Source: Promethearchaeota archaeon (GTDB lineage Archaea; Asgardarchaeota; Lokiarchaeia; Sigyniarchaeales; SOKP01). From it: DNA of 64,000 nucleotides. Positions 1-38,097 of this stretch are shown here, piece by piece. The stretch spans positions 288,001 through 352,000 of the forward strand of contig JBHLOY010000002.1 in the NCBI GenBank assembly GCA_048939995.1, read 5' to 3'. The translations under genes and the position numbers were made by a program. Within the stretch, counting starts at the first letter, position 1. Every line of letters begins with the position of its first letter. Under the pieces are notes generated by a model. The model made no database searches and was not told the origin of the DNA. It saw only the letters and a list, made by a program, of their open reading frames with translations.

Positions 1-1
1 A

Positions 2-1129
2 GCTTCCAAAATTGAGAATTTAATTCATCAATTAGAAAGGATTAATTCAGATTATGTAAAGGATATTGAATGGCTTACAAATCAGAGAGATAAGAAAGCA
101 TTCATTAGTTTAACTGAATATCGCGAAAAAATTTTAGGAGAAAAAGCATTAGAGATGGAATTTAACGAAGATATTGCTGTAACTTTAGAACTATCAGCAT
201 GTCAGTATTTTCCTTTCCTTATAGATATCACTAAAGATGCTATTGAGACTCAACAGTTAGTTCCAGGGAGGATTATACGTGTTAGAAATATGAAAGAACA
301 AGAAAAAGATGGAGATTTAATTGCAATGGCTGCAGCAATGCAAATTATAGGATCGAGTTGGGTTGAAACACTAGATACAAAAGGTACTGCCCCTGGTCCA
401 GATGGGCTCCCTGTCAATGTACATCTAGGGGGACCAGATACAATTACTGGTTATTTTGGCGGTGTTGGTCAACCAAATGACTATGCTTTAAAATGGATTG
501 ATGAATTCCTATACTATTATACTAATTATGGAATAAGGCAAGTTCTTAATGTAAATCCCGGAACGGTCCTCCTTGGTTATTTTATTTATAAATTAGGCAT
601 CAATAATGAATTTAAAATCAGTGTATATATGGGAAATGATAATCCTTATTCATGTCTTTGGACTCTTTTAACTGCTAAACTATTCGCACGAGAAGATGGA
701 ACTAGCCCTTTAATTGGTTTTAATCTTGCTAATTCGGTAAATAATGAAACTCTTGAATTAGCTGCTTATATCAGAAAAGAATTCAATTTTGAAGATGTAG
801 TTAGACTTGAACATCATATTACTGAAACTTGGAAAAGTATAGTAAGACAACCTTATGATAGGAGAGATGAGCTCTTAGAATTAGCACCTAAAGTAAAGAA
901 CGTAAGTGCTAAACATGAAGGAGGAGATGTTGAAGTAGAAGAAAAAAGAGAACACCCTACAGATATACTTGAATATTTCATGCCAAAAGAAGAATTGAAG
1001 AAAGCTGGATTATGGGATTTCTTACGTATAAATCATCTTGACAGATATCGGGCTGTGAATCACACAGCTCAAGTGCTAACAGAAAAAGGAATTCCATTTA
1101 TTGCTGCGAAGAATTTACATTATCGATAG
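2..1129 (+). CDS. Conserved hypothetical protein, 5'-truncated by the window edge
   Basis: The frame of ORF 155..1129 is open from base 2 (ASKIENLIHQ...), so the real start is upstream of the window. Enzyme-like Gly-rich segments (VHLGGPDTITGYFGGVGQPN), but family not recognised. Confidence 0.75.
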   Translation, partial: ASKIENLIHQLERINSDYVKDIEWLTNQRDKKAFISLTEYREKILGEKALEMEFNEDIAVTLELSACQYFPFLIDITKDAIETQQLVPGRIIRVRNMKEQEKDGDLIAMAAAMQIIGSSWVETLDTKGTAPGPDGLPVNVHLGGPDTITGYFGGVGQPNDYALKWIDEFLYYYTNYGIRQVLNVNPGTVLLGYFIYKLGINNEFKISVYMGNDNPYSCLWTLLTAKLFAREDGTSPLIGFNLANSVNNETLELAAYIRKEFNFEDVVRLEHHITETWKSIVRQPYDRRDELLELAPKVKNVSAKHEGGDVEVEEKREHPTDILEYFMPKEELKKAGLWDFLRINHLDRYRAVNHTAQVLTEKGIPFIAAKNLHYR

Positions 1130-2632: not shown

Positions 2633-4120
2633 ATGAGTAAATTTAGTTTTAGACCAATTGGTGTCATGCCGGCTCTAATAACTCCATTTAATAAAGATGA
2701 GTCCATAAATGAAGAACAATTAAGAAACTTAATAAATTATCTTATTGAACAAGGAGTTAATGGGCTTGTTCCAGTTGGTACAACTGGAGAATTTGTAAAT
2801 ATGACATTCCAAGAACGTTTGGAAGTCATTAAAATTGTTGTAGATGAAACAAATGGACGTATACCAGTTATAGCTGGAACTGGAGAAACTGGAACAAAAC
2901 TAGTCGTAGATGCTACTAAAGCTGCAACAGATATTGGAGTTGATGCTGTACTTATCGTTACACCTTATTATCTGAAACCAAAGGCAAAAGGGTTATATGA
3001 TCATTACTTTACGATTGCTGAAAAAACAGATATTCCTATAGTTTTGTACAATATACCTGCTTGTACAGGAGTAGAATTACCTTGGACTGTCGTGGAGGAT
3101 TTAGTAGATATTGAAAATATAGTTGGTATTAAAGACTCTAGTGGAGATTATAAATATTTCTCAGCTTTATTAGAGAAAGTTAGCGATAAAATTTCAGTTC
3201 TTATTGGATGGGATGAAAACGTATTAGGTGCCCTCGCAGGAGGCGCTGCTGGATGCATTCTAGGATCGGCAAATGTATTTCCTAAATTTTGGCTTGAGAT
3301 TTATAATTGTGTTAGAAATAATCAATTGCAAGAGGCTCAATTGCTTCAAAAGAAGGTTCAAAAATTAGCTCGATTATTAATTAATTCTGGGGCGCTTGGG
3401 GTTAAATCATGCCTAAATATGATGAACATTCCAGTCGGAAAGACACGACAACCGCTCGTTTTGGGAGATACACTCTCATATGAAATAAAGGATGAATTAC
3501 GAGTAGAATTAGAAAAGTTAGGATTAATTGAAAAATCAGAAATTCAATTTGAATTTGGAGATAAACCCCTAATAAGCCGCTTCTATGCTGTTGGAATTAC
3601 ACCACAGAAAATTTCTGATTTTGGATTAAAAGTGGGAGAATCGCTTGTAGGGGAACGTGTGGAACTAGCACATATTGACATACTGATTGGTAAAAAAGAT
3701 GGCCCAGTTGGTAATGCTTATGCTCAAGCATTAACCAACCCAGAAGAAGGTCGTGAAGGGCTTCAAGTTATATTAGAACCTAATATGCAAGTAAAGCCAC
3801 CAACAATTATGATTCCCACAGTGAGACCTACCTCGCTTCGCCACGCTAGCTTAACCTATGGACCTGCTCAAGCCGCTATTGCAAAAGCAGTTATGCAATG
3901 TGTTGAAGACGGCATTCTTCCTAAAGAATTAGGAGATGAAATTGTGTTAATTGTCAATGTTTTTGTCCATCCTAGTGCTAGCGCAAGAAAACGAGTATTT
4001 ATCAATAATTATAAAGCAACTAGAAATGCTATCAGAAAAGCAATGGAAGGAGTGCCGACTGTAGAAGATGGAATTGAAAATATGGAAAATGCTAGACATC
4101 CATTCAGAAATGATCCTTAA
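2633..4120 (+). CDS. DHDPS/DapA-family class I aldolase fused to a C-terminal formaldehyde-activating enzyme (Fae) domain
   Basis: N-terminal ~300 aa has GTTGE, TPYY, LYNIP and GIKDSSGD (Schiff-base Lys). C-terminal ~165 aa has VGESLVG...AHIDILIGKKDGPVG, KPPTIMIP, GPAQAAIAKAV, VFVHP and NYKATRNAI, typical of Fae. Confidence 0.88.
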   Translation: MSKFSFRPIGVMPALITPFNKDESINEEQLRNLINYLIEQGVNGLVPVGTTGEFVNMTFQERLEVIKIVVDETNGRIPVIAGTGETGTKLVVDATKAATDIGVDAVLIVTPYYLKPKAKGLYDHYFTIAEKTDIPIVLYNIPACTGVELPWTVVEDLVDIENIVGIKDSSGDYKYFSALLEKVSDKISVLIGWDENVLGALAGGAAGCILGSANVFPKFWLEIYNCVRNNQLQEAQLLQKKVQKLARLLINSGALGVKSCLNMMNIPVGKTRQPLVLGDTLSYEIKDELRVELEKLGLIEKSEIQFEFGDKPLISRFYAVGITPQKISDFGLKVGESLVGERVELAHIDILIGKKDGPVGNAYAQALTNPEEGREGLQVILEPNMQVKPPTIMIPTVRPTSLRHASLTYGPAQAAIAKAVMQCVEDGILPKELGDEIVLIVNVFVHPSASARKRVFINNYKATRNAIRKAMEGVPTVEDGIENMENARHPFRNDP

Positions 4121-11566: not shown

Positions 11567-12733
11567 ATGGCAAACTTCTGCTATAATTGTAATCGATGTG
11601 TGAATGTTTGTCCACTCTCTCATATTGATGTTTTTTACCCTCAAAAATTAATAGTTGATTTAGTCTCATCACCTATAGAAGAGGTTATAAAAAATCATAA
11701 TATCTGGGATTGTCTTACGTGTGGTCTCTGCAGTAATTATTGTCCTATGACAGAGGGAAAATTTGGGGTAAAATTTCCTGAGTTAATCTTAGAGTTAAGA
11801 AAACTGGGTCTCAATAATAGTACTCAAGTAGATAAAATCATCCAATGCGAAACTCATGATGAAATCTTTCCTCTTATATCAAGAATAATGTCAGATGATA
11901 AATTAAGTCCAAATAAGTTAGAATTTCTAAAAAGCACAGCCTTAAAAACTACAAGCTCAGGCGAGATTGCATATTTTACGGGATGTTTACCTCTCATGGA
12001 GAATATTTTTTATAAATCAGATGTAAATTATTTAAACATTCCAAAAACTATAATTGGTTTACTTAATGAGGCTAATATATCCCCAGTCGTCTTAAATGAA
12101 AAATGTTGTGGACATGATATATTATGGGGCAAAGGAGATATTAACACTTTTAAAAAGCTAGCTGAATATAATGTAAAACTTTATAGAGATGCAGGAGTCA
12201 AAACCATCATTCTAGGATGCGCAGAAGGTTATAGAACTTGGAAATTCGACTATCCAAAAGTTATAAAAGATTATGATTTTGAAGTTCTTCATTTCTCTGA
12301 ATTCTTTCTTAAAGAAAATATCCTTGAAAATGTTAGATTCCCACGAGAAACCAAGATAAAAGTCACTTATCATGACGCTTGCAGATTGGGGCGTTTAGGA
12401 GGAAAATTATATGATGCTCCAAGGAATTTACTTAAAAAGATTCCCGGAGTAGAATTAATTGAGATGAAAAACATTAAAGATGATGCTAATTGTTGTGGAG
12501 TTTCAGCATTTATAGGATGCAACGAATCAACCCGCGTTTTTAGACAGAACCGAATTAATGAAGCTATAGAAACTGGAGCAGATTATTTAATTGTACCTTG
12601 CCCCAAATGCTGGACTCATTTTGATTGTTATCTTAATGAGCCCTCCTTAGATGATGAACATAAAGATTTAAAAAATAAAATTAAAGTAATAGATTTAGCA
12701 AGCTTTATTGGCGAATTACTTTTCCTAGTTTAA
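11567..12733 (+). CDS. hdrD: HdrD-like Fe-S oxidoreductase (HdrC-like ferredoxin plus two CCG domains)
   Basis: CYNCNRCVNVCP and CLTCGLCSNYCP, then YFTGC, EKCCG, YHDAC, CCG and CPKC. Confidence 0.85.
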   Translation: MANFCYNCNRCVNVCPLSHIDVFYPQKLIVDLVSSPIEEVIKNHNIWDCLTCGLCSNYCPMTEGKFGVKFPELILELRKLGLNNSTQVDKIIQCETHDEIFPLISRIMSDDKLSPNKLEFLKSTALKTTSSGEIAYFTGCLPLMENIFYKSDVNYLNIPKTIIGLLNEANISPVVLNEKCCGHDILWGKGDINTFKKLAEYNVKLYRDAGVKTIILGCAEGYRTWKFDYPKVIKDYDFEVLHFSEFFLKENILENVRFPRETKIKVTYHDACRLGRLGGKLYDAPRNLLKKIPGVELIEMKNIKDDANCCGVSAFIGCNESTRVFRQNRINEAIETGADYLIVPCPKCWTHFDCYLNEPSLDDEHKDLKNKIKVIDLASFIGELLFLV

Positions 12734-12789
12734 AAGACAATGGAATGTAAAATGTCAGAATGTGATAAATAAAAATTTTTAGATGTAAT

Positions 12790-15700
12790 ATGAGTGAAAA
12801 TAACAAAGTAGGAGCTGCATTAGTTATAGGAGCAGGGATTGGGGGATGTCAAGCAGCGTTAGATTTAGCAAATTCAGGTATAAAGGTTTATCTGGTTGAG
12901 AAAAATCCTTCCATTGGTGGCGTAATGGCTCAATTAGATAAGACTTTTCCGACGAATGATTGTTCCATGTGTATTCTAGCTCCAAAACTTGTAGCAGTAG
13001 ATAGAGATCCTAACATTGAATTGATAACTTATGCGGATGTCCTAAGTGTTAAAGGAAACGCAGGTAACTTTAATGTTACAATTAATAAAAGGACAAGGTA
13101 TATCATTGAAGATAAATGTACAGGCTGCGGAGAATGTATTCAACAATGTCCCGTTCAAATGCCTGATGAGTTTAATCAAGGACTGAGTGATCGGAAAGCA
13201 ATGTATCTTCAATTCCCTCAAGCTGTACCTTTTAAAACATTGATAGATAAAAGAGGAATATCTCCTTGCAGAGATGCATGTCCTGCTCACATAAACACGC
13301 AGGGATATGTTGGTTTGATTTCTAAAGGAAAATATCAAGAGGCTTTGGACCTTATAAGAGAAAGATGTCCCCTTCCATCTGTGATTGGTCGTATTTGTCC
13401 TCACTATTGCGAAGATGCTTGTAATAGGAAGGAAATTGATGAACCAGTAAATATTTGTGGACTGAAAAGATTTGTAGCTGACCACATAAGAGAGAATTTT
13501 GAAGAAAAAATCACTTTTTTGGAGGAAAAGAAAGAAGATAAAGTAGCTATCATTGGTTCAGGTCCTGCAGGATTAACTGTTGCATATCATTTAGCTAGAA
13601 GAGGCTACCCAGTAACTATTTTTGAAAAAGAATCAGTCCCTGGAGGAATGCTTAGAATAGGTATACCTGATTATCGATTACCACCTGAAATCTTGGAAGC
13701 AGATATTGATCATATCAAAAAATATGGCGTAGAAATAAAAACAAATGCTTGCTTTGGGCCAGATCTTACTTTCAGCGATTTAAAGAAGCAAGGATACAAA
13801 GCTATATTCATTTCTATAGGGCTTCATAAAAGTCGTGAAATGAAAATAGAAGGGGATGATCTTAAAAATGTATTATATGGAGTAGAATTTCTTAGAAATT
13901 TAAATTTGGCAATAGAAACTCCTAATATCAAGGATAAAATTGTTGGTGTAGTTGGCGGAGGAGATGTAGCTATGGATGCTGCTCGCTCTGCGCTTCGATT
14001 AGGTGCAAAAAAAGTTATCATTATTTATAGACGTTCTGAAAACGAAATGCCTGCTTCGAAAGAAGAAATTGAAATGTCAAAGGAAGAGGGCATAGAATTC
14101 CAATTCTTAACTAATCCAGTAAAAATTTATGGAGATAAATCTAAAAAAGTAACTGAAATAGAATGTGTTCGAATGGAACTAGGCGAACTTGATGCTTCAG
14201 GAAGAAGAAGACCTATGCCAATAAAAAATTCTGAGTATAAAATGAAAATTGACACAGTTATATTAGCCATCGGCCAAGAAGCAGATTTCTCTTTATTACA
14301 AGCTGCCTGTCAAGATGAATTAGAATTTGATCAATCAAATCTGATTCAAATTAATAAAAAAACTTTTGAAACTAATATCCCTGGAATCTTCGCAGGCGGT
14401 GAAATTGTAAAAGGTCCTGGTTCAGCAATAGAAGCTATAGCCATTGGAAATAAAGTAGCAATAACACTTGAAAAATTTCTAAAAGATGAAGTAATTACAG
14501 AAGAATTAGAAACGATCCCTGATTATCGTGAGGAAGAAATTATTGGAATGGACGATATTGAGAACATTGAGAGATTCTCATGTCAAGAACGAAAAGAATG
14601 TAGTGTATGCATGCCTGATGAACGGATAATGAATTTCGAAGAAGAAACTAGAACTATGACAGAACAAGAAGCGATTGAAGAAGCAAACCGTTGCCTGAAT
14701 TGTGCTTCTTGTTGTGAATGTTTTGAATGTGTGAGAGCTTGTATGGCTGATGCTGTTGATCATACCTTAAAGAATGAGTTACTTTCTATTAATGTTGGAG
14801 CTATAATATTAGCACTTGGTTCTGATGTATATATTCCCGGAGAAGGAAATGTTTATGGCTATGGTGAATATAAGAATGTTATCACAAGTATAGCATTTGA
14901 AAGAATATTAAATGCATCTGGACCATTTAAAGGAGAGGTTGTTCGTCCATCAGATCATACGACTCCTAAAAAAATCGCATTTTTACATTGTGTTGGTTCT
15001 AGGGATAAAAAAATAGGTCATGAATATTGCTCATCAATGTGTTGCATGTACACAACCAAAGAAGCAGTAATTGCAAAAGAACATTCTGAAAACGTTGAAC
15101 CAACAGTTTTTTCTATGGATCTAAGAGCACATGGAAAAGATTTTGAGAAATATATTGAGAGAGCTAAGAACGATTATGGGATAAGATACATTCGAAGTAG
15201 AATCTCTTCTATAACAGAAATTCCTGATTCTGAAGACTTAAAAATAAAATTTGAAACAGAAGAAGGAAAAGTGGTTGAAGAGATTTTCAATTTGGTTGTT
15301 TTATCGGTTGGTATACAACCCAATTCAACAGTATCAACATTAGCAAAAGAATTAAATATCGAACTAAATGAGTATGGTTTTTGTAAGACTGAGAGATTTA
15401 ATCCAAGTGAAACGTCACGACCAGGAGTTTATGTATGTGGCACTTTTAAAGAACCAAAAGATATACCAGAAACAGTTATAGAAGCTAGTGCTGCTGCTGG
15501 AGCAGTAAACGTACTTTTATCTGATGTTAGGGATACATTAGTAGCTCAAGAAAAACATTTTGAGGAACGTGACATAACTGGGGAAGAAACTCGTATTGGA
15601 GTATTTGTATGCCATTGTGGAATCAATATTGGAGGAGTTGTAGATGTTCCAGAAGTAGTTGACTATGCTAGTACTTTACCAGATGTTGTATATGCTGAAA

Positions 15701-17736
15701 GAAACCTTTATACATGTTCGGCGGATACGCAAACTATTATAAAGGAGAAAATAAAGGAACATAATCTAAATAGAGTAATTGTAGCATCATGCACTCCAAG
15801 AACCCATGAGCCGTTATTTCAAGCTACTATTAGAGAAGCAGGGTTAAACAAATATCTTTTTGACTTAGCGAATATTAGGGACCAATGTTCTTGGGTACAT
15901 ATGCATTCTCCAGAAGAAGCTACAGAAAAAGCTAAAGATTTGGTGAGAATGTCTGTTGCGAAAGCTAGGAATTTAGTCCCATTACAAGAACAAAAAGTAG
16001 ATGTAATTCATAAAGGCTTGATAATTGGAGGTGGTGTAGCTGGAATGACAGCAGCTTTGAATCTAGCCGATCAGGGCTATAATGTATATCTTGTTGAAAA
16101 AACCCATCGATTAGGAGGGTTTGCTCAAAAGGTATATCAAACTTTGGAAAATGAGGATGTCCAAAATTTGATTTCAAATTTGATTGATAAAGTGACAAAT
16201 CATAAGCTAATTAAGGTCTTTTTGAGAGCAAACATTAATTCTATAACTGGTTATATAGGAAATTTTGCTACAGAAATAAACTACGGAGACAGTAATGAAG
16301 TAGAGAAAGTGGAACATGGAATCATTATCGTAGCTACGGGTGCAAATGAGTATATACCTAAGGATAGTGAATATCTCTATAATCAAGATAATAAAGTTAT
16401 AACTCAATCAAAATTTGAAGAAATTCTTTTTGAAGACGATAAAAAGTTAAAGGAATTAAAGTCAATTGTAATGATCCAATGTATTGGTTCCAGAAACGAA
16501 GAAAATCCGTATTGTAGTCGAATGTGTTGTGCAGAGGCTATAAAAAATGCGATAAAAGCAAAACAGATTAATCCTGATCTAAATATAATTATTTTATTCC
16601 GAGATATAAGAACTTATGGCTTTAAGGAAAAATATTATAACTTAGCTAGAGAAAAAGGAATTTTATTTATTAGATTTGATGAAGATAATCCACCTGAACT
16701 TATTAAAGAAAATAATCAATTACAGATTTTGTTACATAAAACAGATATAGGAGAATTAAAAACTAGCGCTGATTTAGTGGTTTTAAGTGCTGGAATTGTA
16801 GCTCCTAATGAAAATTCAGAGCTTGCAAAATTATTAAAAGTACCTCTTAATGAGGATAAATTTTTTTTAGAAGCTCATGTTAAATTAAGGCCAAGTGATT
16901 TTGCAACAGAAGGAATATTTTTGTGCGGTACTGCCAGAGGCCCTGCTAATATAACTGAAAGCATAGCTCAAGCGAATTCTGCCGCAGCAAGAGCCATGAC
17001 AATCCTTTCTAAAGACATTTTATTAACTGAAGGAGTTACAGCTAATGTTAACGAAGAAAAATGTATTGGATGTGGAAGATGTGCTGAAATATGTCCTTAT
17101 AATGCTATTGAGTTATTAGAAAGCACCAAACAAATGGGATTATATGATAACGAATTAAAGAAAGCACAAGTAATTAAGGCTTTATGTAAGGGATGTGGTA
17201 CATGTTTTGCTGAATGTCCCGTTTCTGCAATTTCTATGAGTCATTTTGGGAATAAACAAATAAAGCCAATGATCAGCGAAGCAGCAATACATGAAGAAAA
17301 AGCTTGGGAACCAAAAATTGTGGCATTTTTATGCAATTGGTGTTCTTATGCAGGAGCAGATTTGGCTGGGGTAAGCCGGTATCAATATCCGCCTAATGTG
17401 AGAATCATAAGAGTTATGTGCTCAGGAGGTATGTCTAAAAGTTATATCCTTGAAGCATTTTTAAACGGTGCTGATGGTGTATTTGTAGCTGGATGTCATA
17501 TTGGCGATTGCCATTATATAAGCGGGAATGAAAATGCATATCTTCGATTGGATAATCTCAAGGAGTTGTTAAAAAAGATAGGTCTTGAAGAAGAAAGAAT
17601 TTATGTAACACAAGTTTCAGCTAGTGAAGGAAGGCAATTTGCAGAGGTTATATCAGAATTTACAGAAAAAATTAAAAAATTAGGAGAAACAAGAATACCT
17701 TCAGAAAAAAGAAAAGTAAAGGTTGAATCCGTTTAA
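12790..17736 (+). CDS. hdrA: Giant HdrA-like (HdrL-type) flavoprotein: HdrA with inserted GltD/NfnB-like NAD(P)H module, second HdrA unit and C-terminal MvhD domain
   Basis: GAGIGG and DKTFPTNDCSMCIL; GltD-like insert (PCRDACPAH, GSGPAG, GGGDVAMDAAR, YRRS); CVGSR..CSSMCC; second unit with VFVCHCGINIGG and GGGVAG; C-terminal CNWCSYAGAD...GCHIGDCHY. Confidence 0.92.
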   Translation: MSENNKVGAALVIGAGIGGCQAALDLANSGIKVYLVEKNPSIGGVMAQLDKTFPTNDCSMCILAPKLVAVDRDPNIELITYADVLSVKGNAGNFNVTINKRTRYIIEDKCTGCGECIQQCPVQMPDEFNQGLSDRKAMYLQFPQAVPFKTLIDKRGISPCRDACPAHINTQGYVGLISKGKYQEALDLIRERCPLPSVIGRICPHYCEDACNRKEIDEPVNICGLKRFVADHIRENFEEKITFLEEKKEDKVAIIGSGPAGLTVAYHLARRGYPVTIFEKESVPGGMLRIGIPDYRLPPEILEADIDHIKKYGVEIKTNACFGPDLTFSDLKKQGYKAIFISIGLHKSREMKIEGDDLKNVLYGVEFLRNLNLAIETPNIKDKIVGVVGGGDVAMDAARSALRLGAKKVIIIYRRSENEMPASKEEIEMSKEEGIEFQFLTNPVKIYGDKSKKVTEIECVRMELGELDASGRRRPMPIKNSEYKMKIDTVILAIGQEADFSLLQAACQDELEFDQSNLIQINKKTFETNIPGIFAGGEIVKGPGSAIEAIAIGNKVAITLEKFLKDEVITEELETIPDYREEEIIGMDDIENIERFSCQERKECSVCMPDERIMNFEEETRTMTEQEAIEEANRCLNCASCCECFECVRACMADAVDHTLKNELLSINVGAIILALGSDVYIPGEGNVYGYGEYKNVITSIAFERILNASGPFKGEVVRPSDHTTPKKIAFLHCVGSRDKKIGHEYCSSMCCMYTTKEAVIAKEHSENVEPTVFSMDLRAHGKDFEKYIERAKNDYGIRYIRSRISSITEIPDSEDLKIKFETEEGKVVEEIFNLVVLSVGIQPNSTVSTLAKELNIELNEYGFCKTERFNPSETSRPGVYVCGTFKEPKDIPETVIEASAAAGAVNVLLSDVRDTLVAQEKHFEERDITGEETRIGVFVCHCGINIGGVVDVPEVVDYASTLPDVVYAERNLYTCSADTQTIIKEKIKEHNLNRVIVASCTPRTHEPLFQATIREAGLNKYLFDLANIRDQCSWVHMHSPEEATEKAKDLVRMSVAKARNLVPLQEQKVDVIHKGLIIGGGVAGMTAALNLADQGYNVYLVEKTHRLGGFAQKVYQTLENEDVQNLISNLIDKVTNHKLIKVFLRANINSITGYIGNFATEINYGDSNEVEKVEHGIIIVATGANEYIPKDSEYLYNQDNKVITQSKFEEILFEDDKKLKELKSIVMIQCIGSRNEENPYCSRMCCAEAIKNAIKAKQINPDLNIIILFRDIRTYGFKEKYYNLAREKGILFIRFDEDNPPELIKENNQLQILLHKTDIGELKTSADLVVLSAGIVAPNENSELAKLLKVPLNEDKFFLEAHVKLRPSDFATEGIFLCGTARGPANITESIAQANSAAARAMTILSKDILLTEGVTANVNEEKCIGCGRCAEICPYNAIELLESTKQMGLYDNELKKAQVIKALCKGCGTCFAECPVSAISMSHFGNKQIKPMISEAAIHEEKAWEPKIVAFLCNWCSYAGADLAGVSRYQYPPNVRIIRVMCSGGMSKSYILEAFLNGADGVFVAGCHIGDCHYISGNENAYLRLDNLKELLKKIGLEEERIYVTQVSASEGRQFAEVISEFTEKIKKLGETRIPSEKRKVKVESV

Positions 17737-17742
17737 AGTTAT

Positions 17743-18582
17743 TTAATATTCATCGGGCATATTTTTAAGTTCTGCTAATGAGAATACTGGACCATCGATA
17801 CAAACATATTTATTACCAATATTGCATCTACCACATTTGCCAATACCACATTTCATTCTCATTTCTAAAGAGTTTAAAATTTGTTCGTCATTAAAACCTA
17901 GTTCTTCTAAGACAGCAATCGTAGTTCTAATCATTATTGGCGGACCACATACTATAGCCACAGCATTCTCAGAAGAGGGTGCTACTTCTTTTACTATTGG
18001 TGCTACGAAACCTACTTTCTCATTCCACCCCTCCTCTTCACGATCTATAGTTAGAGTGACATTTAAATCATCTCGTTTTTTCCAATCATAAAGATCTTTT
18101 CGATATAATACCTCTCCTGAATCCCGGTTACCATAAATCACTGTTATATTTTTATATTGATTTCTAAATCTGTTATCTAACATATAAATTACAAGAGAAC
18201 GCAATGTAGAAAATGCAAAACCTCCTCCTATTATTACAATATTCTTCCCTTTCATATCTTCCACAGGCCAGCCATTTCCAAAAGGACCTCTTACACCAAC
18301 GGTATCTCCTTCTTCCATATCATGAAATGCTGTAGTAACAGTTCCCATCTTCTTTATAGTGAATTTAATAGAACCCGTTTCAGTAGGAGATGAGGCAATT
18401 CCTATTGGGCATTCTCCTTTTCCTATAACGCATATCTCTGCAAATTGTCCAGGGATATATTTAAAACTTTCAAAATCCTCTTTCTTTTTAAAAACTAAAT
18501 CAAGAGTCTTAATATCATTTACTTTATTCTCTGAAGCGATATTTTTAATCGCAGTAAGTTTAGGAATATAAGGATTAGGCAT
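17743..18582 (-). CDS. flxA: FlxA-like FAD/NAD(P)-binding oxidoreductase with 2Fe-2S (AsrB/PyrK family)
   Basis: PGQF, RGPFGNGW, GGGFA, CGPPIM, EMRMKCGIGKCGRC...CIDGPVF. Confidence 0.85.
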   Translation of the reverse strand: MPNPYIPKLTAIKNIASENKVNDIKTLDLVFKKKEDFESFKYIPGQFAEICVIGKGECPIGIASSPTETGSIKFTIKKMGTVTTAFHDMEEGDTVGVRGPFGNGWPVEDMKGKNIVIIGGGFAFSTLRSLVIYMLDNRFRNQYKNITVIYGNRDSGEVLYRKDLYDWKKRDDLNVTLTIDREEEGWNEKVGFVAPIVKEVAPSSENAVAIVCGPPIMIRTTIAVLEELGFNDEQILNSLEMRMKCGIGKCGRCNIGNKYVCIDGPVFSLAELKNMPDEY

Positions 18583-19633
18583 TTATTTTTTCACTCTCTA
18601 TTTTTTCAATATTACTAATTTTTTCAATTATCTTCCTAAGATCATTATTAACTGGACATAATTGAATACATCTTCCGCATCCAACACATCCTAATAAATT
18701 GTAATTTTCAGGGTAATAACAAAACTTATGTAAAATTCTATTTCTGCATCTCTCTATTGTACTATCACGAGGGTTATGACCGCTAGTGTGAAGCGAATAC
18801 AGACAGAATTGACAAGTATCCCATATTCTAACTCGACGTCCTCGATTTTCATTTGGGATTTTTTCATCAATAACATCAAAACACGTACAAGTTGGACATA
18901 AAAATGAACACGTACCGCAACCTATACAACTTTCACTAATCTCTTTCCAGATGGGATGATTAAAGTTAGGATCTAACACTTTATCAATATCTTCTAAATT
19001 CAATTTGGTGGATATTGATTGTTCTGCTAGAATGGCTAATTCTTGCGCAGCTTTAATGTCAGCATCAGTAGCGCTAGTCAACCATGAAAACTTCTTAATT
19101 AACTTCTTCCCTTTATTACTGATTCCCTCAACAATGTATTTATTATCCAAATCAACCAGAAAGATGTCAAAATTTTCCTTTTTAAAAGGATGTCCTCCCA
19201 CAGATGTACAAAAACATGTAGTTTTTGGAGTGTTACAGGCAATTCCGATTAGACTAGTATTTTCTCTCCTTTTTAGAATAATCTCGTCTTTAACTTCTCC
19301 TTGGGAAAAGAAATTTTCTAATAAGAAAAAACTATAAGCATCACATGGTCTAATTCCAAAAATTATTCTTTTTTCATCCAAATTTTTTATATCTTCAATC
19401 TCTATTTCCTTACCATTAATTTTATATTCAAAAAGAATATCTGTTTTTGGAAATAGTAATTCTTTAGGCGGAACCTTGGAATTTAAATAATCTAAAACTA
19501 TATCCTCAACATTAACTATTTTCTTAAAAATAATATTACCTTTCTCTTTAGTAGGCGCATAAATCGTATAATTTTTAGCTAGTTCATTATAAAACTTTGG
19601 AATTTGTTCTTTAAGTAGAATTAATTCTTGCAT
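18575..19633 (-). CDS. flxB: FlxB-like 4Fe-4S protein (AsrA family)
   Basis: GIRPCD, CFCTSVG, CIGCGTCSFLCPTCTCF, WDTC, CVGCGRCIQLCP. Confidence 0.82.
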   Translation of the reverse strand: MQELILLKEQIPKFYNELAKNYTIYAPTKEKGNIIFKKIVNVEDIVLDYLNSKVPPKELLFPKTDILFEYKINGKEIEIEDIKNLDEKRIIFGIRPCDAYSFFLLENFFSQGEVKDEIILKRRENTSLIGIACNTPKTTCFCTSVGGHPFKKENFDIFLVDLDNKYIVEGISNKGKKLIKKFSWLTSATDADIKAAQELAILAEQSISTKLNLEDIDKVLDPNFNHPIWKEISESCIGCGTCSFLCPTCTCFDVIDEKIPNENRGRRVRIWDTCQFCLYSLHTSGHNPRDSTIERCRNRILHKFCYYPENYNLLGCVGCGRCIQLCPVNNDLRKIIEKISNIEKIESEKINA

Positions 19634-19649
19634 TCTCTAAATTACCTCT

Positions 19650-20663
19650 TTAATCTTCCTCTAACATATATTCTTGCTTATCATCTATACTAAAAGACAT
19701 CATAGGAGGTAATTGTTCGAAATCAATGCCAGAAGTAAAACCAAATTGTTCTTTTGCTATTTTTTCTAATTTTCTTGTAATCAAATTCAAATCAATTCCC
19801 ATTGGACATACACTAGTACAAGCCCCACATGCTACACATCTTCCCGTTAAATGTAATGCTCGTATTAAATGGAACACAATAATGTCTGGTAAATCAGTTG
19901 TCTTTCCAAACCAAACTGGTTTATTTTGATCAACAAAACATAGATTACAATAACACATAGGGCAAGCTTCCCGACAAGCATAACACCTCGTGCATGTACT
20001 TAATAAATCTTTTATATATTCCCATTTTTCTTCAGGAGTTTTTGATTCGTAGTTCTCTAAATCTGCAAAATCATCCTCAATAATAGGATTCTCCAAAAAT
20101 TCACCTACGTTAACTTCTGCTACTTTCGGAGGCGACTTAACTTGGCATGTTTTACATAACTCATTTTCATATTCTTCAAAAGAAAATGCTTTTTCAAGAT
20201 CTTTTGTTTTAACTATTATATTATCCCCGGATACAGAGACACTTATAATTTCTTGTTCCCCTATCTCTTTCTGAATTCTTGCCCTATTGATAATTCCATT
20301 GCAAGGAATCCCGATTATCTTTATATCATCAAGATCAATTTGATGCTCTACAGCTAAATGGATTAATGCTTTTCCGACGCATCCCTTGGATATAATTCCT
20401 ATTTTTAACTTTTGACCATCTGACTTAATAAAAGTTGGCATTAGGGGTACTAAATATTTAGCTAAGTTAATATAACATAAATTATTCCAAATTAGCTTAT
20501 CAACCTCTTCAACTTTATCTATAACTACAGGAGATGAGCTTAAAGGAACTGTTCCCGTTGTATAACCGATAATAACATCAACCACTTTTTCCTCAAGTAG
20601 CTTTTTAGCTAAATCTCTAATTAATTCTTCGATTTCTTTATTTGTCTCTTCTAGATTTTCCAT
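19650..20663 (-). CDS. flxC: FlxC-like (FdhB/FrhB-related) 4Fe-4S protein
   Basis: VDVIIGY, KGC, IIGIPC, CTRCYACREACPMCYC, GRCVACGACTSVCP. Confidence 0.82.
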   Translation of the reverse strand: MENLEETNKEIEELIRDLAKKLLEEKVVDVIIGYTTGTVPLSSSPVVIDKVEEVDKLIWNNLCYINLAKYLVPLMPTFIKSDGQKLKIGIISKGCVGKALIHLAVEHQIDLDDIKIIGIPCNGIINRARIQKEIGEQEIISVSVSGDNIIVKTKDLEKAFSFEEYENELCKTCQVKSPPKVAEVNVGEFLENPIIEDDFADLENYESKTPEEKWEYIKDLLSTCTRCYACREACPMCYCNLCFVDQNKPVWFGKTTDLPDIIVFHLIRALHLTGRCVACGACTSVCPMGIDLNLITRKLEKIAKEQFGFTSGIDFEQLPPMMSFSIDDKQEYMLEED

Positions 20664-20667
20664 AATA

Positions 20668-21132
20668 TCACCAAGTTTTTTGAAATTGTTTATTTGGTCC
20701 TAATTTTTTTACATTATTTGTCACTTTTTTGACTAGGGTTGCAAACCGTTCACCTTCAGATGCTGAAGCCCACATAAAACTTACTCTATTAGGTTGGATA
20801 CCAAAAAAATTAAGTAATTCATTTAAGATTGTAAAACGTCTTCTTGCTACTAAATTGCCACTAATATAATGACAATCTCCAGGATGGCATCCTGAAATAA
20901 TAACACCATCCCAACCACTTATTAAGCTTTTAATTATTAAATAGGGATTAATTCTTCCAGAACATGGAACTCTTACTATTCTAATATTAGAAGGATATTG
21001 AATTCGACTTACTCCAGCTAGATCTGCACCGGCATATGAACACCAATTACATAAAAAGGCAATTATTTTTGGTTGCCATTCCTCATTCTTTTCTATCTTA
21101 TCCGTTTGAGACTTTGTTTTACTCATCATCAT
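20668..21132 (-). CDS. mvhD: MvhD/FlxD 2Fe-2S subunit
   Basis: FLCNWCSYAGAD, RVPCSGR, GCHPGDCHY, WASASEG. Confidence 0.93.
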   Translation of the reverse strand: MMMSKTKSQTDKIEKNEEWQPKIIAFLCNWCSYAGADLAGVSRIQYPSNIRIVRVPCSGRINPYLIIKSLISGWDGVIISGCHPGDCHYISGNLVARRRFTILNELLNFFGIQPNRVSFMWASASEGERFATLVKKVTNNVKKLGPNKQFQKTW

Positions 21133-23147
21133 TCCCCTCCCATTATAATTGAAAATAATTGCTCACCAGTAAAACCTAGAATATCTATTGCTGCACATCT
21201 ACAATTACCTGAACAAGCACCACACCCTTTACATAAGGCTTGGTTGACCGAAGCTACTTTACCAAATCGCTTATCATCAATCAGCTCAATCGCGCCATAA
21301 GCACAATTTTCTACACACATACCGCATCCAATACAACGTTCTGGAAGCACAACCGCATAATAAGGTTCTAATTCCACTTCTCCTCTAGCCATTAGCGTTG
21401 CAGCACTCGAAGCTGCACCCTTTGCTTGAGCTACGGAATCGGGGATATCCTTCGGACCTTGGGCAACACCAGCAATAAATATTCCTTCAGTTAAAGTGTC
21501 AACAGGCCTTAATTTTGGATGAGCTTCCATGAAAAATCCATCAGAAGATCTCTGAACTCTTACCAAAGAAGCAACTTTATCAGCGTCTACTCTAGCTTCT
21601 AAACCACATGAAAGAACTAATAAATTAACCTTAATTTCAATAGGTTCTTGAAGCAGAGTATCTTCTGATCTAATAATTATATTATGATCTTGATCTTCAC
21701 TAACTTCAGCAATTCTTCCTCGAATGTAATTTATTCCGTAATTTCTTGCTGCTGATTCATAAAACTCTTCATAACCCCTCCCAAAAGCTCGGATATCCAT
21801 ATAAAAAATATAGACATCTGCATCTGGGTGTTTTTCCTTATACTGTCTGGCTTGTTTTGTGGCATACATACAGCATACCCTTGAGCAATATTGATTCCCT
21901 CCTTCTCTAAAGTTTCTACTGCCAACACATTGAAGAAACGCAATACTATGAGGTTCTTTAAGATCAGATGGACGAGCTGGCTTTCCAACTAATGGACCAG
22001 TAGAACTTAATAATCGTTCCATCTGAAGTCCATTAATCACATTTGGATATTTACCATATCCGTATTGTTTCAATTCAGTTGGGTCATATAAATCCCAACC
22101 TGTAGCTATAATTATTGTTCCAACTTTAACTTTAATATATTCTGGTTCTTCATCTAATCTAATCGCATCTGGTTCACAAACAGTTGGTCTCGCACAAATT
22201 CCGCATTTAATACATTTATCCATATCTATAGTGTATTTGCCAGGAACAGCTTGAGGAAATGGAATATATATTGCTTTTCTAGTAGCTAACCCAATATCAA
22301 ATTCATTTGAACATACAATGGGGCATTTCTCCTCACAAACTCCACACCCTGTACATGCTTCTTGATCTACATAATGAGGTTTTTTCAATATTGTAACTTC
22401 AAAATTCCCAACATAACCAGTTATTTCTAATACTTCCGAATAAGTTAATAGCTCGATATTTTCGTTTCTTGCAACATCAACCATTCTGGGAGTTAATATA
22501 CAAGCACTACAATCCATAGTCGGGAAAGTTTTATCTAATTGTGCCATATGGCCTCCTATGGTTGGAGTCTTTTCGATTAAATACACCTTATACCCTTCAG
22601 TGGCTAAATCTAAAGCTGAATTCATACCTGCTATACCTCCTCCAATAATCAAACAAGCAGGTTCAATTTCTACGGTTTTTACTTCTAAAGGTTTTAGTTC
22701 TCTTGCTTTAGCAACTGACATTTTAATAAGATCTTTTGCTGCTTCAAAGGCTCCCTCTGGATCTTTCATATGTACCCAAGTAGAATGCTCTCTGATGTTC
22801 GCTTGTTCAAATAAAAACTGATTTAAACCAGCTTCTTTACACACTAATCTAAAAGTAGGTTCATGCATTCTTGGAGAACATGCTGCTACAACGACTCTAT
22901 TTACTAAACCTGATTGTATATCTTCTTTTATTATATTTTGACCAGTATCTGAACAAAAAAACTTATATTCACGTGCAACAGCAACATCGGGTAATTCTTT
23001 AGCATACTCTACCAAATCAGGTACTGAAACGACTCCACCTATATTTACACCACAATGGCATACATATACTCCAACTTGGGGCTTTTCATTACCAGTGACC
23101 ACAATGCCTTTTTTAATTTTTTCTACCTTTTTTTTAGTTTCAGTCAT
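21129..23147 (-). CDS. hdrA: Heterodisulfide reductase subunit A
   Basis: VGVYVCHCG, GGGIAG, DKTFPTMDCSACIL, CVGSR, CSRVCC and C-terminal ferredoxin motifs. Confidence 0.95.
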   Translation of the reverse strand: MTETKKKVEKIKKGIVVTGNEKPQVGVYVCHCGVNIGGVVSVPDLVEYAKELPDVAVAREYKFFCSDTGQNIIKEDIQSGLVNRVVVAACSPRMHEPTFRLVCKEAGLNQFLFEQANIREHSTWVHMKDPEGAFEAAKDLIKMSVAKARELKPLEVKTVEIEPACLIIGGGIAGMNSALDLATEGYKVYLIEKTPTIGGHMAQLDKTFPTMDCSACILTPRMVDVARNENIELLTYSEVLEITGYVGNFEVTILKKPHYVDQEACTGCGVCEEKCPIVCSNEFDIGLATRKAIYIPFPQAVPGKYTIDMDKCIKCGICARPTVCEPDAIRLDEEPEYIKVKVGTIIIATGWDLYDPTELKQYGYGKYPNVINGLQMERLLSSTGPLVGKPARPSDLKEPHSIAFLQCVGSRNFREGGNQYCSRVCCMYATKQARQYKEKHPDADVYIFYMDIRAFGRGYEEFYESAARNYGINYIRGRIAEVSEDQDHNIIIRSEDTLLQEPIEIKVNLLVLSCGLEARVDADKVASLVRVQRSSDGFFMEAHPKLRPVDTLTEGIFIAGVAQGPKDIPDSVAQAKGAASSAATLMARGEVELEPYYAVVLPERCIGCGMCVENCAYGAIELIDDKRFGKVASVNQALCKGCGACSGNCRCAAIDILGFTGEQLFSIIMGGE

Positions 23148-23161
23148 TTATATCTAACCTT

Positions 23162-24118
23162 CTATATTAACTGATTTTTTATTATATTCAAGAAGGGATC
23201 TATTGAGATGAATGGGGGTACTCCTGTTAGTTCATGGTTTTTTAATAAACCTAATTTATTAGGGTCCATTCCAAATGATAAACCCAAAAGTTGGGTGATA
23301 TATACAACTGGAATTTCCAAAGGTTCCCCAATTATATCTTTATAGATTCCATTTGCTTCCATCTGCCCTAAATCAAGTTGTAAATGGCAGAATGGGCAGC
23401 AATCCACTACGATATCTGCGCCAGCATCGCGCATATTCATGAGCTTTTCTCTAGTAAAATCTGCTGAAACCTCTTTTACAGCAGTCCTTACAGCTCCACC
23501 TGCTCCGCAACACATGAATTTATCCTTATACGTAATACTTTTTGCCCCGGTTAATTCTACAATTTCATCTAAAAATATCGGGTCTTCACATTCCCCATTC
23601 CAAGGACGTTTATCGCTTGGTTTTATAATATGACATCCATAATGCACTGCAACCTTAAGATCTTGAAATTTGTATTTTATATGATCACGTAAGTAATCTA
23701 GACCCATATCTAAATATAGAGCTTGTACAACATGCTTTGGCTCTAAATTACCTTTATAAGTTCTTCCTATTTTTTCGAGTTCTTTTTGTACCATTTTTTT
23801 CATTTCAGGTTCATGTTCTAATTCGAACCACGCGTCTCTAAGGGTACCATAACACCCATTACATCCAGTTATAGGATTTACTCCAATTTGTTCGGCAATC
23901 GAAATATTACGAGCAGCTATTACTAACCACGTTGGAATATGGAAAGCTCTAAATACACCTGGAGCAGGACAACAAGAAGCTCCTGGTAAATCCAGAATTT
24001 CAGCTCCAAGAAAATCAAACACATTTCTAATAGAGGCTTCTATCATAGGATATCTATTAGGTATTACACAACCAAGAAATAATCCATATTTCCATTTATA
24101 TTCTGAGCTTTCATTCAT
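23162..24118 (-). CDS. hdrB: Heterodisulfide reductase subunit B
   Basis: FLGC, SCCPAPG, CNGCY, HYGCH, CCGAGG, CPFCHLQLD. Confidence 0.95.
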   Translation of the reverse strand: MNESSEYKWKYGLFLGCVIPNRYPMIEASIRNVFDFLGAEILDLPGASCCPAPGVFRAFHIPTWLVIAARNISIAEQIGVNPITGCNGCYGTLRDAWFELEHEPEMKKMVQKELEKIGRTYKGNLEPKHVVQALYLDMGLDYLRDHIKYKFQDLKVAVHYGCHIIKPSDKRPWNGECEDPIFLDEIVELTGAKSITYKDKFMCCGAGGAVRTAVKEVSADFTREKLMNMRDAGADIVVDCCPFCHLQLDLGQMEANGIYKDIIGEPLEIPVVYITQLLGLSFGMDPNKLGLLKNHELTGVPPFISIDPFLNIIKNQLI

Positions 24119-24720
24119 GACTTATTCTCCTCTTGGTTTTCTTTTTTATCTCGTTCTTCTTTAAGTTTTTTAGCATTTTCCATTAATTCAGTAAACCCAA
24201 CCGATTTCATTAAGTCTTGACACTCCTTTACCGCTTCTGGATATGTATGAACAGTTGGAGGTAAAGGTGGTAATCCATAAGATTCTCTTAAATCTCGCCA
24301 TTTTTTGTTTGCTTCTCCATTTGCTGGTACTCCATGACCTGTGACATAAAAAATCTTGGTTGCTAAACCAAAATGAGAATCTAAAATAAAACCCTCTTCC
24401 ACAGCAATATTTCTTAATTTTATTATCATATCTGTTACTGGAATATTACGCGGACATCGTTCATAACAAGTATAACATGTAGAACATAACCAGATATCAA
24501 TATCTTTCAAGACACTCTCATCTCCCGTTAAAGCCCGGCGAATTGCGGAACGTGTTCGGTATGCGGTTCGTCTTCCAGATGGACAACTGCCCGTACAAGT
24601 ACCACAATTAATACACGCTCTAATTCGCTCTAATCCAGCATCAACAAACTTTTGAGCAATTCTGGAATTTGTGTCTTTGTGTACTTTTCTTTTAATATAT
24701 TTTTCTACATTATCGCTCAT
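24115..24720 (-). CDS. hdrC: Heterodisulfide reductase subunit C
   Basis: CINCGTCTGSCPS, WLCSTCYTCYERCPR, TGHGVP. Confidence 0.93.
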   Translation of the reverse strand: MSDNVEKYIKRKVHKDTNSRIAQKFVDAGLERIRACINCGTCTGSCPSGRRTAYRTRSAIRRALTGDESVLKDIDIWLCSTCYTCYERCPRNIPVTDMIIKLRNIAVEEGFILDSHFGLATKIFYVTGHGVPANGEANKKWRDLRESYGLPPLPPTVHTYPEAVKECQDLMKSVGFTELMENAKKLKEERDKKENQEENKS

Positions 24721-33915: not shown

Positions 33916-35787
33916 TCATTTATATTCTTGATCAATATTTATCCATTCAATATCAAGCTCATTGAGTTTAATTTTAGTAGGAATCCCATCAGTATTCCAA
34001 CCCATTATATTATAATAAATATCCCTAGCTTCATCAAACTTTGTTGCATCAATTGAAATTCTTTCCAATGCTCCTGAGGTGTGTGGTTCAAAGAAACGAG
34101 CAGGAAGCCAATCATCTTCCTTATTAAAACCTTCTCTAATATTGAACATTCTCTCCATATTATTTACCCTCTCACCAAACTTCATTAGTTCCCAAGTAGA
34201 TGCATCCCAACCTGTGACCGCTTTTAATAATTCAGTTTCTTGGTTTATGCTAAATGGCATGAAAAAACAAAATACTAAACTATTTTCCACAGCTCTCCAA
34301 TTAGTTAAGTAAATAAGAGATTTTATCTTTTTTACACTTAAATCCTTAAGAGGAAGTGCATCAAAAATACTTAAAGTTGCAAAACCTTGCATTCTATCTT
34401 GATTAGTTAACCCATCATCATGAAAATTTTTCATATGCTCCGCTCCCGTTGAAGACAAGGCATATCCTATTCCTAAACCATGTTTTAAACGAGGTTCATG
34501 CATTGGTATTTCTTGACCTTTAACATGAATTGCAAATTTATGAGCTTCCTTACCTATTTTTTCTGCAGCTCTCTTTACACCCTCCGCTAATAAATCGCCT
34601 ATTCCCTCACGATTTCCCATCATTTCTAACATCTTTAGCATACTCTGAGAGTCTCCAAAGTTTAATTTCAATCCATTTGTATCTTTTTCAGTTATTATTC
34701 CATTTTCATAACACTCCATCGCAAAACCTATCGTGACACCTGCTGAGATTGTATCCAATGAATATTTATTGCATAATTCATTTGCTTTACAAACCACTAT
34801 TGGATCACTTATACCACAATTTGAACCGAAAGCCGCAAGGGTTTCATATTCAGGTCCCCCGTATTTAGGGTCTAGGTAATTTGATTCATTAATAGACACC
34901 ACTTTTTTACATCTAATAGGACAAGCATAACAAGTTTCTCTTTTTAAATTAATATTTTCACTAAAAATAGCAGGATCTAACTTTTTTGCATTCTTAAATC
35001 CTCCATCTCTAAAATTTCGAGTAGGGAGGTTTCCTGATAAGGCAAATTCTTCCATTCGATTTCCTCCAGTACCAAAAGCAAAATAACGGCTATAGCCTTT
35101 AAAAATTTCATAAGTGTCTTTTAGAATTTGTTTAATTTTATCTTTATTTTCAACTTTTGGCTTAATATTACCTCTAATAGCTATTGCCTTCAAATTTTTG
35201 GACCCCATCACTGCTCCCATTCCACTACGGCCCGCAGCGCTTCTATAGTCGTTTATAACACATGCAAATCGAGTTAAATTTTCACCCGATTTACCAATAC
35301 AGGCTACACGAGCAAAATTGTCATTAACTTCTTTGAGGATTAATTTATGAGTATCTCCAGTAGTCTTACCCCATAAGTGCTTAGCATCTTTTATTTGAAC
35401 CTTATCATTGTGAATCCATAGATAGATTGGACTATTCGCTTTACCTTCAACAATTATTGCATCATAATCCGCGTGTTTTAATTCAGCGCCCCAATATCCT
35501 CCGACTTCAGATACTCCAAAGCCTCCTGTTAAAGGGGATTTAGCCCCAATACTATTTCGTCCTGTTCCTGGAATATTGGTTCCCGTTAATGGTCCTGTGG
35601 CAAAAATTAGCTTATTTTTATCACCTAATGGATTTAATCCCTTTGGGGTTTCTTTAAGAAGAAAATATGCCACAAACCCCTCTCCTCCGAGATATTTTCT
35701 ATAAAAGGATTCCTCTGGATGTTGAACTTTAATTTTGCTAGTTGAAAGGTTGATTCTTAATATATTACCACTATATCCAAATTCCAT
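33916..35787 (-). CDS. aor: Tungsten/molybdenum aldehyde:ferredoxin oxidoreductase
   Basis: KSPLTGG, AAGRSGMGAVMGSKNLKAI, CYACPIRC, GPEYET, DTISAG, ERMFNIREG. Confidence 0.93.
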   Translation of the reverse strand: MEFGYSGNILRINLSTSKIKVQHPEESFYRKYLGGEGFVAYFLLKETPKGLNPLGDKNKLIFATGPLTGTNIPGTGRNSIGAKSPLTGGFGVSEVGGYWGAELKHADYDAIIVEGKANSPIYLWIHNDKVQIKDAKHLWGKTTGDTHKLILKEVNDNFARVACIGKSGENLTRFACVINDYRSAAGRSGMGAVMGSKNLKAIAIRGNIKPKVENKDKIKQILKDTYEIFKGYSRYFAFGTGGNRMEEFALSGNLPTRNFRDGGFKNAKKLDPAIFSENINLKRETCYACPIRCKKVVSINESNYLDPKYGGPEYETLAAFGSNCGISDPIVVCKANELCNKYSLDTISAGVTIGFAMECYENGIITEKDTNGLKLNFGDSQSMLKMLEMMGNREGIGDLLAEGVKRAAEKIGKEAHKFAIHVKGQEIPMHEPRLKHGLGIGYALSSTGAEHMKNFHDDGLTNQDRMQGFATLSIFDALPLKDLSVKKIKSLIYLTNWRAVENSLVFCFFMPFSINQETELLKAVTGWDASTWELMKFGERVNNMERMFNIREGFNKEDDWLPARFFEPHTSGALERISIDATKFDEARDIYYNIMGWNTDGIPTKIKLNELDIEWINIDQEYK

Positions 35788-35898
35788 TTTATCCTCAGTT
35801 ATTCGTATCTTTTATATTAGTTTTTATTATATTTTAATTCAAAATAAAGTTTTTAAAAATGAAGTTCATATATACTTCGAAGAAAATTCGAAATTAAT

Positions 35899-37068: not shown

Positions 37069-37234
37069 ATTCTTCCTTAATTTATTTTCATTTAAAATTC
37101 ATATCAATTTTGAGGATTATTCATTCTAAAGAAGAAACAATTAAAATTTTATTATTTATAAACACAAGTTATTTGTTTCTATAAGAGTTATTTCTTCTAT
37201 TATATTCTTCTTAAACAGTATATTGTGAAGTACA

Positions 37235-38080
37235 ATGAAGATGGAAGAATTTATTAGATGTTTAAATTGTGGAAAAAAATTAGGATCTAAATCTGGGAAA
37301 ATTCATAATCAATGTACAGAATGCATGTTAAGATTAGATTTCAGATCAGAAGATATAAATCATAAAGATATAGATGAAAATCTGCAAAAAATTTTGGATT
37401 TCTTTATTTCCGATGTAAATGCCGCCTTTAATAAGGATCCTGCAGCTAATACATTACTAGAAGTATTAACAAGCTATCCTGGAATCAAGGCCATTTTATT
37501 GCATCGCATAGCGCATTTTTTCTGGAAAATTAAAATGCCTTTTGTACCAAGATATATTTCGGAAATTTCTCGAGATCTTAGTGGAATCGAAATTCACCCA
37601 GGAGCAGAAATCGGAAGTGATTTCTTTATAGACCATGGGGGGAGTGTAGTCATCGGAGAGACTTCTGTAATTGGCGATAATGTTACAATTTACGCAGGTG
37701 TAGTCTTAGGGGGTACTAACTTAGAGAAAACTAAACGACATCCGTCCATAGGCGATAATGTAGTTATAGGGTCAGGAGCAAAAATTTTAGGTCCTATTAA
37801 TATAGGAAATAATGTTAGAATAGGAGCAAATTCAGTTGTTGTAGAAGATGTTCCACCAAATTGCGTAGTAGTTGGAGTACCCGGTAAAATTGTCTCAAAA
37901 AAAGGCGAAAAAATTGAAAAAATAGATTTAAGACATGGAGATTTACCCGATCCCATTTCTATTGCACTCTCGAGTTTGGAAAAAAGAATTAAGCAATTAG
38001 AGGGTAAACTTTCTATAAGCCCCGACCATAAGAAGGAAGATATAGAAATTTTTTACGGAAATTATGGTGGAGGAATTTAG
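37235..38080 (+). CDS. cysE: Serine O-acetyltransferase with an N-terminal Zn-ribbon
   Basis: DPAA, YPGIKA..HRIAH, GIEIHPGAEIG..FFIDHG, KRHPSIGD, VGVPG. Confidence 0.93.
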   Translation: MKMEEFIRCLNCGKKLGSKSGKIHNQCTECMLRLDFRSEDINHKDIDENLQKILDFFISDVNAAFNKDPAANTLLEVLTSYPGIKAILLHRIAHFFWKIKMPFVPRYISEISRDLSGIEIHPGAEIGSDFFIDHGGSVVIGETSVIGDNVTIYAGVVLGGTNLEKTKRHPSIGDNVVIGSGAKILGPINIGNNVRIGANSVVVEDVPPNCVVVGVPGKIVSKKGEKIEKIDLRHGDLPDPISIALSSLEKRIKQLEGKLSISPDHKKEDIEIFYGNYGGGI

Positions 38081-38097
38081 TATTCACATATTAAAAG

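Follow-up and report, generated by a model that had tools for sequence, protein, structure and literature searches.

The window, by which is meant the whole 64,000-nucleotide stretch of Promethearchaeota archaeon DNA that was analysed, poses near its start the question of which reaction is served by a protein that joins an aldolase barrel to a formaldehyde-activating enzyme (Fae). The protein is encoded on the forward strand at 2633-4120 by a single unbroken open reading frame (495 residues, ATG to TAA), and Fae loads formaldehyde onto H4MPT, the archaeal one-carbon carrier. In the original prediction, the barrel was guessed to act on something like 4-hydroxy-2-oxobutyrate (HOB), made up of pyruvate plus formaldehyde; the exchange of gene partners described below lends this guess independent support, while the substrate itself is still an inference. 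The reading preferred here is that the fusion converts HOB and H4MPT to pyruvate and methylene-H4MPT via formaldehyde, and its chances are judged slightly better than even on the sequence evidence.

The two-domain composition is supported by several comparisons. Pfam matches place the DHDPS domain (PF00701, E 1e-78) at residues 10-293 and the Fae domain (PF08714, E 3e-54) at residues 334-491, the latter covering profile positions 1-158 of 159; furthermore, the Fae part scores 181.8 against a cut-off of 118 with TIGR03126 and aligns without gaps to Fae of M. extorquens (PDB 1y5y, E 1e-30). On the basis of Pfam/HMM matches, alignment and tree, residues 1-298 (2633..3526, forward strand) are assigned to a class I (Schiff-base) pyruvate aldolase barrel of the DHDPS/NAL superfamily, in a non-DapA clade. 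A linker of about 35 residues (3527..3631, same strand), delimited by the gap between the Pfam matches and by alignment, leads to a complete Fae domain (3632..4120, forward; Pfam/TIGRFAM and 1y5y alignment) with AHID (His347), EPN..KP, GPAQ (Gln413), VHP, NNY and a C-terminal HPF. The equivalents of Fae His22, Gln88 and the C-terminal arm (1y60 structure) are thereby present (H347, Q413 and HPF). The barrel has the catalytic Tyr, the Schiff-base Lys (K167) and the GxxGE carboxylate-binding motif of the superfamily, and retains T50/T51, Y112/Y113 and Y139, while Cys144 (YNIPACT) stands where E. coli DapA has its Arg138. Both the complete Fae domain with its AHID His and the replaced DapA Arg, as originally proposed, were thus confirmed. 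Motifs characteristic of the barrel family are G-W/H-D-E and I-L-G/A-S-A-N, with G-x-D-E and I-L-[GA]-S near-invariant among 168 fusion sequences; the position of NanA Gly207 is a near-invariant Leu, which suggests a small acceptor pocket. A single-sequence AlphaFold model of the fusion reached a pLDDT of only 34 and gave no reliable structure, and a promoter/terminator scan of the locus stayed at chance level with a bacterial model applied to an archaeal host.

The fusion is neither a chance nor a misassembly artefact, since the best 120 listed relatives (82-100% identity) all carry both domains and the same architecture, which the original prediction had proposed to search for, occurs in 97 of 201 sampled Asgard genomes. 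The closest genomes to the source are Promethearchaeota/Lokiarchaeia, and further examples are found in records named Anaerolineae and Thermoproteota/Korarchaeota. The gene is single in Lokiarchaeia and several other families, and forms a tandem pair elsewhere. Paired copies divide the Fae motifs between them: type A keeps AHID, VHP, NN and HPF and has lost EPN and GPAQ; type B keeps EPN and GPxQ, with the AHID His and the C-terminal HPF in 0 of 28. Both motif sets are united in the single protein of the window. Because H4MPT binds between neighbouring Fae subunits, these complementary motifs suggest that the two gene products of a pair probably build one Fae site. The Schiff-base Lys has been lost from some paired copies. 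One lineage, GCA_003560875.1 (loci L090/L091, 8544-11449), has it in neither tandem fusion, Ala and Leu standing in its place, with the complementary Fae motifs kept, and the type A copies L215, L218 and L219 of the Thorarchaeia-like family f7 carry Ser or Asn instead.

The database name of the gene is DapA (4-hydroxy-tetrahydrodipicolinate synthase), because the barrel passes the TIGR00674 cut-off (253.3 against 206.15); its best PDB matches are likewise DHDPS. It belongs to the same family and shares the Thr-Thr, Tyr and Schiff-base Lys of DapA, but differs from it in the missing Arg138, the pocket motifs GWDE and ILGSAN, the fused Fae domain and a location away from dapB. Arg is found at the DapA 138 position in 0 of the 168 fusion sequences, and a quick tree gathers the fusion barrels into a single branch (SH-aLRT 100), separate from those of DapA, NanA and YagE/YjhH. 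The same genome (98% complete) harbours a canonical, Arg-bearing dapA scoring 338.5 with TIGR00674, directly upstream of dapB and near a lysA-like fragment, as well as a separate Fae-Hps gene; the fusion is therefore a distinct paralogue, and the earlier argument against a role in lysine biosynthesis is well supported. Fae-Hps (bifunctional formaldehyde-activating enzyme / 3-hexulose-6-phosphate synthase) also joins Fae to a formaldehyde-releasing or -fixing aldolase and so links a carbon skeleton to methylene-H4MPT. In contrast, the partner here is an N-terminal DHDPS-family Schiff-base barrel, proposed to use pyruvate and not ribulose 5-phosphate, and PRK13307 (Fae-Hps) matches residues 332-491 only, with a score of 146 against a cut-off of 274 and no Hps (OMPDC-fold) domain. 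The aldolase-Fae protein is thus a real, conserved and misannotated enzyme whose logic resembles that of Fae-Hps, but whose partner fold, probable substrate and pathway differ. If the preferred reading holds, a widespread gene that bears the name dapA in roughly every second Asgard genome would be reassigned, the present label inflating predictions of lysine biosynthesis.

The conserved neighbour of the fusion is a gene for a U32-like TIM barrel, the 3' part of which occupies 1..1129 of the window on the forward strand (427 residues; its start lies about 155 nt before the window). This form, typically of 428 residues, adjoins the fusion in 74 of 80 Lokiarchaeia loci, mostly about 20 bp upstream. 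Lineage-specific insertions separate the two genes here, namely a polysaccharide deacetylase (1182-1991, forward) and a hexapeptide acetyltransferase (2064-2615, forward); both are outside the conserved unit, the acetyltransferase preceding the fusion in only 3 of the 80 loci. The first 12 nt of the acetyltransferase and fusion genes are identical, and an SD-like sequence follows the stop codon of the barrel gene, as if the insertion had taken over the start region of the fusion. Before the window (about -1689 to -337, reverse strand), a UDP-glucose dehydrogenase-like gene runs divergently from the barrel gene; such a gene is present in 56 of the 80 Lokiarchaeia loci, with no functional tie apparent. 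The conservation of the UDP-glucose dehydrogenase, Bcp, nitroreductase and DUF255 neighbours does not extend beyond Lokiarchaeia, and they were taken to reflect synteny.

Other Asgard families have a 315-residue U32-like gene adjoining the fusion instead, and the two forms were never found together in one sampled genome. Their profile similarity is weak (probability 38%, E 3e-4). The 428-residue form was modelled as a TIM barrel (pLDDT 89), for which fold searches returned generic TIM barrels with no specific match (U32 Mk0906 at Z 11.2, among many tied barrels) and a Pfam search gave none, while relatives of the 315-residue form show weak PF01136 matches. One form or the other is present in 92 of the 97 fusion-positive genomes. 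Family f7 differs in that its barrel gene is detached from the fusion pair: at loci L254-L256 of this family, the 428-residue form lies a long way from the pair, behind an ECF S-component gene, and a ThrC-like gene runs divergently. Bacterial relatives of the 315-residue form occur with arabinofuranosidase, sugar dehydrogenase, lactonase and aldonate dehydratase genes, a context which suggests action on a 2-keto-3-deoxy (4-hydroxy-2-oxo) acid; such oxidative arabinose/sugar-acid operons point to five-carbon 2-keto-3-deoxy acids in those hosts. Bacterial genes annotated "U32 family peptidase" (L269-L272, L236) lie within operons of this kind and probably encode a sugar-acid enzyme. The partner barrel of the fusion, too, probably acts on a 4-hydroxy-2-oxo acid, and PatB and amino-acid dehydrogenase neighbours hint at 4-thio-2-oxobutyrate from methionine or homocysteine. 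A 3-oxo-isoapionate decarboxylase was also entertained as a speculative identity for this barrel.

An association of the fusion with the H4MPT pathway is seen in gene co-occurrence. Mch and Mtd are both encoded in the source genome, and Mch is found in 91 of the 97 fusion-positive genomes; barrel-positive genomes have the fusion in 86 of 96 cases with Mch as against 6 of 36 without it (the genomes are MAGs and kin are not independent, so that these and the other co-occurrence counts describe a pattern and are no statistical test). In Mch-negative families (f5, f22, f24 and part of f2), the barrel heads an alternative operon. Among 15 barrel loci of Mch-negative genomes, a class I aminotransferase lies directly downstream in 14, followed by homoserine dehydrogenase (Hom) and aldehyde:ferredoxin oxidoreductase (AFOR) in 11; the Hom of this operon scores above its equivalog cut-off, and a PatB C-S lyase follows the operon in three loci. 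Of the 26 genomes of this class that have Hom, 23 yielded no Asd, and the Hom concerned is therefore placed outside the usual aspartate pathway. In one Mch-negative genome, a stand-alone and highly divergent DHDPS-like gene without Fae (L251:5085-6131) overlaps the start of the barrel gene, and L192 appears similar.

A third arrangement is seen in metagenomic loci (partly Anaerolineales): among about 60 of them, the barrel is flanked by a PanB-like gene in 20 and by an aldolase-Fae gene in seven; the two neighbours never share a locus, an exclusion that is weak in view of the many short loci. The barrel-linked PanB-like proteins cluster closely together, share about 40% identity with housekeeping PanB and bear V179L, I202L and I212L. 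PanB (ketopantoate hydroxymethyltransferase) is a single metal-dependent domain that uses THF. It is an unrelated protein, the fusion being a Schiff-base aldolase plus Fae that is predicted to use H4MPT, but the net reaction proposed for both is a hydroxymethyl transfer between a 2-oxo acid and a methylene-pterin. HOB, the 2-oxo counterpart of homoserine, would be the one compound common to a pyruvate aldolase with Fae, a PanB-like enzyme, and an aminotransferase with Hom. The component reactions have precedents: pyruvate-dependent aldolases interconvert HOB with pyruvate and formaldehyde in E. coli (PMC8879981, PMC13279387), and PanB has been reported to transfer the one-carbon unit of HOB to THF with release of pyruvate (Bouzon 2017, as reviewed in PMC6966089).

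The aldolase-Fae protein would, according to this scheme of parts, be a bifunctional methanopterin-dependent HOB hydroxymethyltransferase built of two modules. HOB would form a Schiff base with Lys167 of the barrel and be split by a retro-aldol reaction into pyruvate and formaldehyde. Fae would then condense the released formaldehyde, possibly by channelling, with H4MPT to give methylene-H4MPT, which would enter the H4MPT one-carbon pathway of the genome and could be oxidised by Mtd and Mch. The upstream U32-like barrel may supply HOB in amino-acid or sugar-acid catabolism, with the fusion disposing of it. Three observations weigh against the scheme: the five-carbon 2-keto-3-deoxy acids suggested by the bacterial operons, the paired copies that have lost the Schiff-base Lys, and the detached barrel gene of f7. 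A wider proposal, advanced tentatively and with less than even confidence, sees HOB as a naturally occurring hub metabolite of numerous anaerobic archaea and bacteria, where a U32-like lyase would make it (perhaps from methionine/homocysteine-derived 4-thio-2-oxobutyrate, or from a sugar acid) and three interchangeable modules would remove it, namely the H4MPT-dependent aldolase-Fae, the THF-dependent PanB-like enzyme and the aminotransferase-Hom-AFOR set. HOB is called non-native in papers on engineered pathways (PMC8879981, PMC6966089). The same reactions as those proposed here make up the synthetic homoserine cycle / HOB pathway (HOB aldolase plus HOB aminotransferase; PMC8879981, PMC6966089), which employs promiscuous E. 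coli enzymes, whereas dedicated conserved operons would here act naturally. The fusion, if so confirmed, would be the first dedicated natural HOB aldolase or hydroxymethyltransferase and a natural counterpart of these synthetic pathways, and would constitute an unrecognised one-carbon entry into the Asgard H4MPT pathway. It would give peptide- or sugar-fermenting archaea an extra route for exchanging one-carbon units with that pathway, and provide an evolved enzyme for synthetic methylotrophy, whose HOB steps rely on promiscuous ones. No paper on an aldolase-Fae fusion was found in the literature searched, outside of which lay most subscription journals.

Among the competing explanations, the best placed, albeit unlikely, is a role of the barrel as an aldolase of 2-keto-3-deoxy sugar acids or 4-hydroxy-2-oxoglutarate, releasing a two- or three-carbon aldehyde. 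Fae would in that case scavenge formaldehyde independently, bind another aldehyde, or act as scaffold or pterin sensor. Such substrates are used by most of the characterised non-DapA enzymes in the DHDPS/NAL superfamily, the G-W-D-E motif resembles those of NanA and YagE, and Fae motifs are kept in the aldolase-dead pairs. The pyruvate aldolases of this superfamily outside DapA include E. coli YagE/YjhH, NanA and the archaeal KDG aldolase, which have a G-x-D-[DE] motif, but the fusion is only 26-31% identical to them, falls on a different branch and has a Fae domain. Its family HMM scores are far below the cut-offs for NanA (195 against 281), HpaI (195 against 397), KdgD (120 against 374) and archaeal KDG aldolase (113 against 390). 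Moreover, the small acceptor pocket suggested by the near-invariant Leu speaks against this reading, and replacement of the fusion by PanB-like or Hom operons would be left unexplained.

With HOB retained as the preferred substrate, the direction of the reaction has to be considered. Scarcely less well placed than a sugar-acid aldolase, and equally improbable in general terms, is the biosynthetic sub-case of the same chemistry, wherein methylene-H4MPT and pyruvate would give HOB, which would be transaminated to homoserine or used by the partner barrel (for example, in thiol addition towards homocysteine/methionine), the fusion replacing homoserine dehydrogenase. Hom is rarer with the fusion (13 of 97 genomes) than without it (61 of 104), and ThrC-like genes are present in 177 of the 201 genomes; AFORs can run in reverse, and the PatB C-S lyase of the alternative operon would also suit synthesis. 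However, the anti-correlation is partly due to Hom sitting in the alternative barrel operon of genomes that mostly have no detected Asd. Further, in family f1, 19 of the 21 fusion-positive, Hom-negative genomes are also without a strong ThrC, while all seven fusion-positive, Hom-positive genomes have one, and the former have therefore no obvious use for homoserine. In the source genome, Hom, canonical ThrB and the PF01053 family were looked for and none was found, but Asd is present, so that a single Hom gene would be a simpler route to homoserine. The simplest reading of the AFOR-containing alternative operon is a route from HOB by way of homoserine and aspartate semialdehyde to aspartate. 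In view of this operon, the other causes of the Hom anti-correlation and the ThrC loss in f1, cleavage is judged about twice as likely as synthesis, and HOB cleavage as such is put forward tentatively, at rather less than even chances. A simple replacement of Hom for threonine synthesis, considered as a separate candidate, was weakened by the ThrC distribution and by the joint loss of Hom and strong ThrC in f1.

Slightly less probable again, and hence doubtful, is a substrate other than HOB itself that likewise bears formaldehyde on a 2-oxo acid. Examples would be 3-substituted HOBs (ketopantoate, or 3-hydroxymethyl-HOB derived from a branched sugar acid), from which two paralogues might remove two hydroxymethyl groups. 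PanB-like genes do occupy the position next to the barrel that the fusion has elsewhere, paralogues often come in tandem pairs and relatives of the barrel occur in sugar-acid operons; nevertheless, the pairs resemble complementary Fae halves and not two full enzymes, and the aminotransferase-Hom-AFOR alternative fits unbranched HOB. An ordinary, separate PanB gene coexists with the fusion in the source genome and in 37 of 43 genomes of f7, so that ketopantoate synthesis is not replaced; such a replacement was rejected as a candidate, PanB being present in the source genome and in most fusion-positive families. Finally, the protein might be an additional lysine-pathway DapA that merely happens to carry Fae. 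The TIGR00674 score, the best PDB matches and the database name would speak for this, but it is very improbable given the absence of Arg138 from all 168 fusion sequences, the canonical dapA (338 bits) beside dapB, and the occurrence of the fusion in families where Asd was not found (0 of 19 in f12, 0 of 3 in f13 and 0 of 3 in f27), which would have no aspartate semialdehyde.

A few further gene arrangements were observed in the source genome and the window. On contig C19 of the source genome (L005:1480-3522), a 680-residue protein in which a degenerate DHDPS-like barrel is joined to an APH-type phosphotransferase domain is encoded downstream of a fusion of 2-hydroxyacid dehydrogenase with class II aldolase. 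Within the window, heterodisulfide reductase-like and ferredoxin-type genes are clustered at 11567-24720, among them one for a 1648-residue multi-domain HdrA-like protein. At 33916-39042, genes for an AFOR and a kynureninase-like class V aminotransferase (reverse strand) run divergently from a cysE-cysK-like pair.
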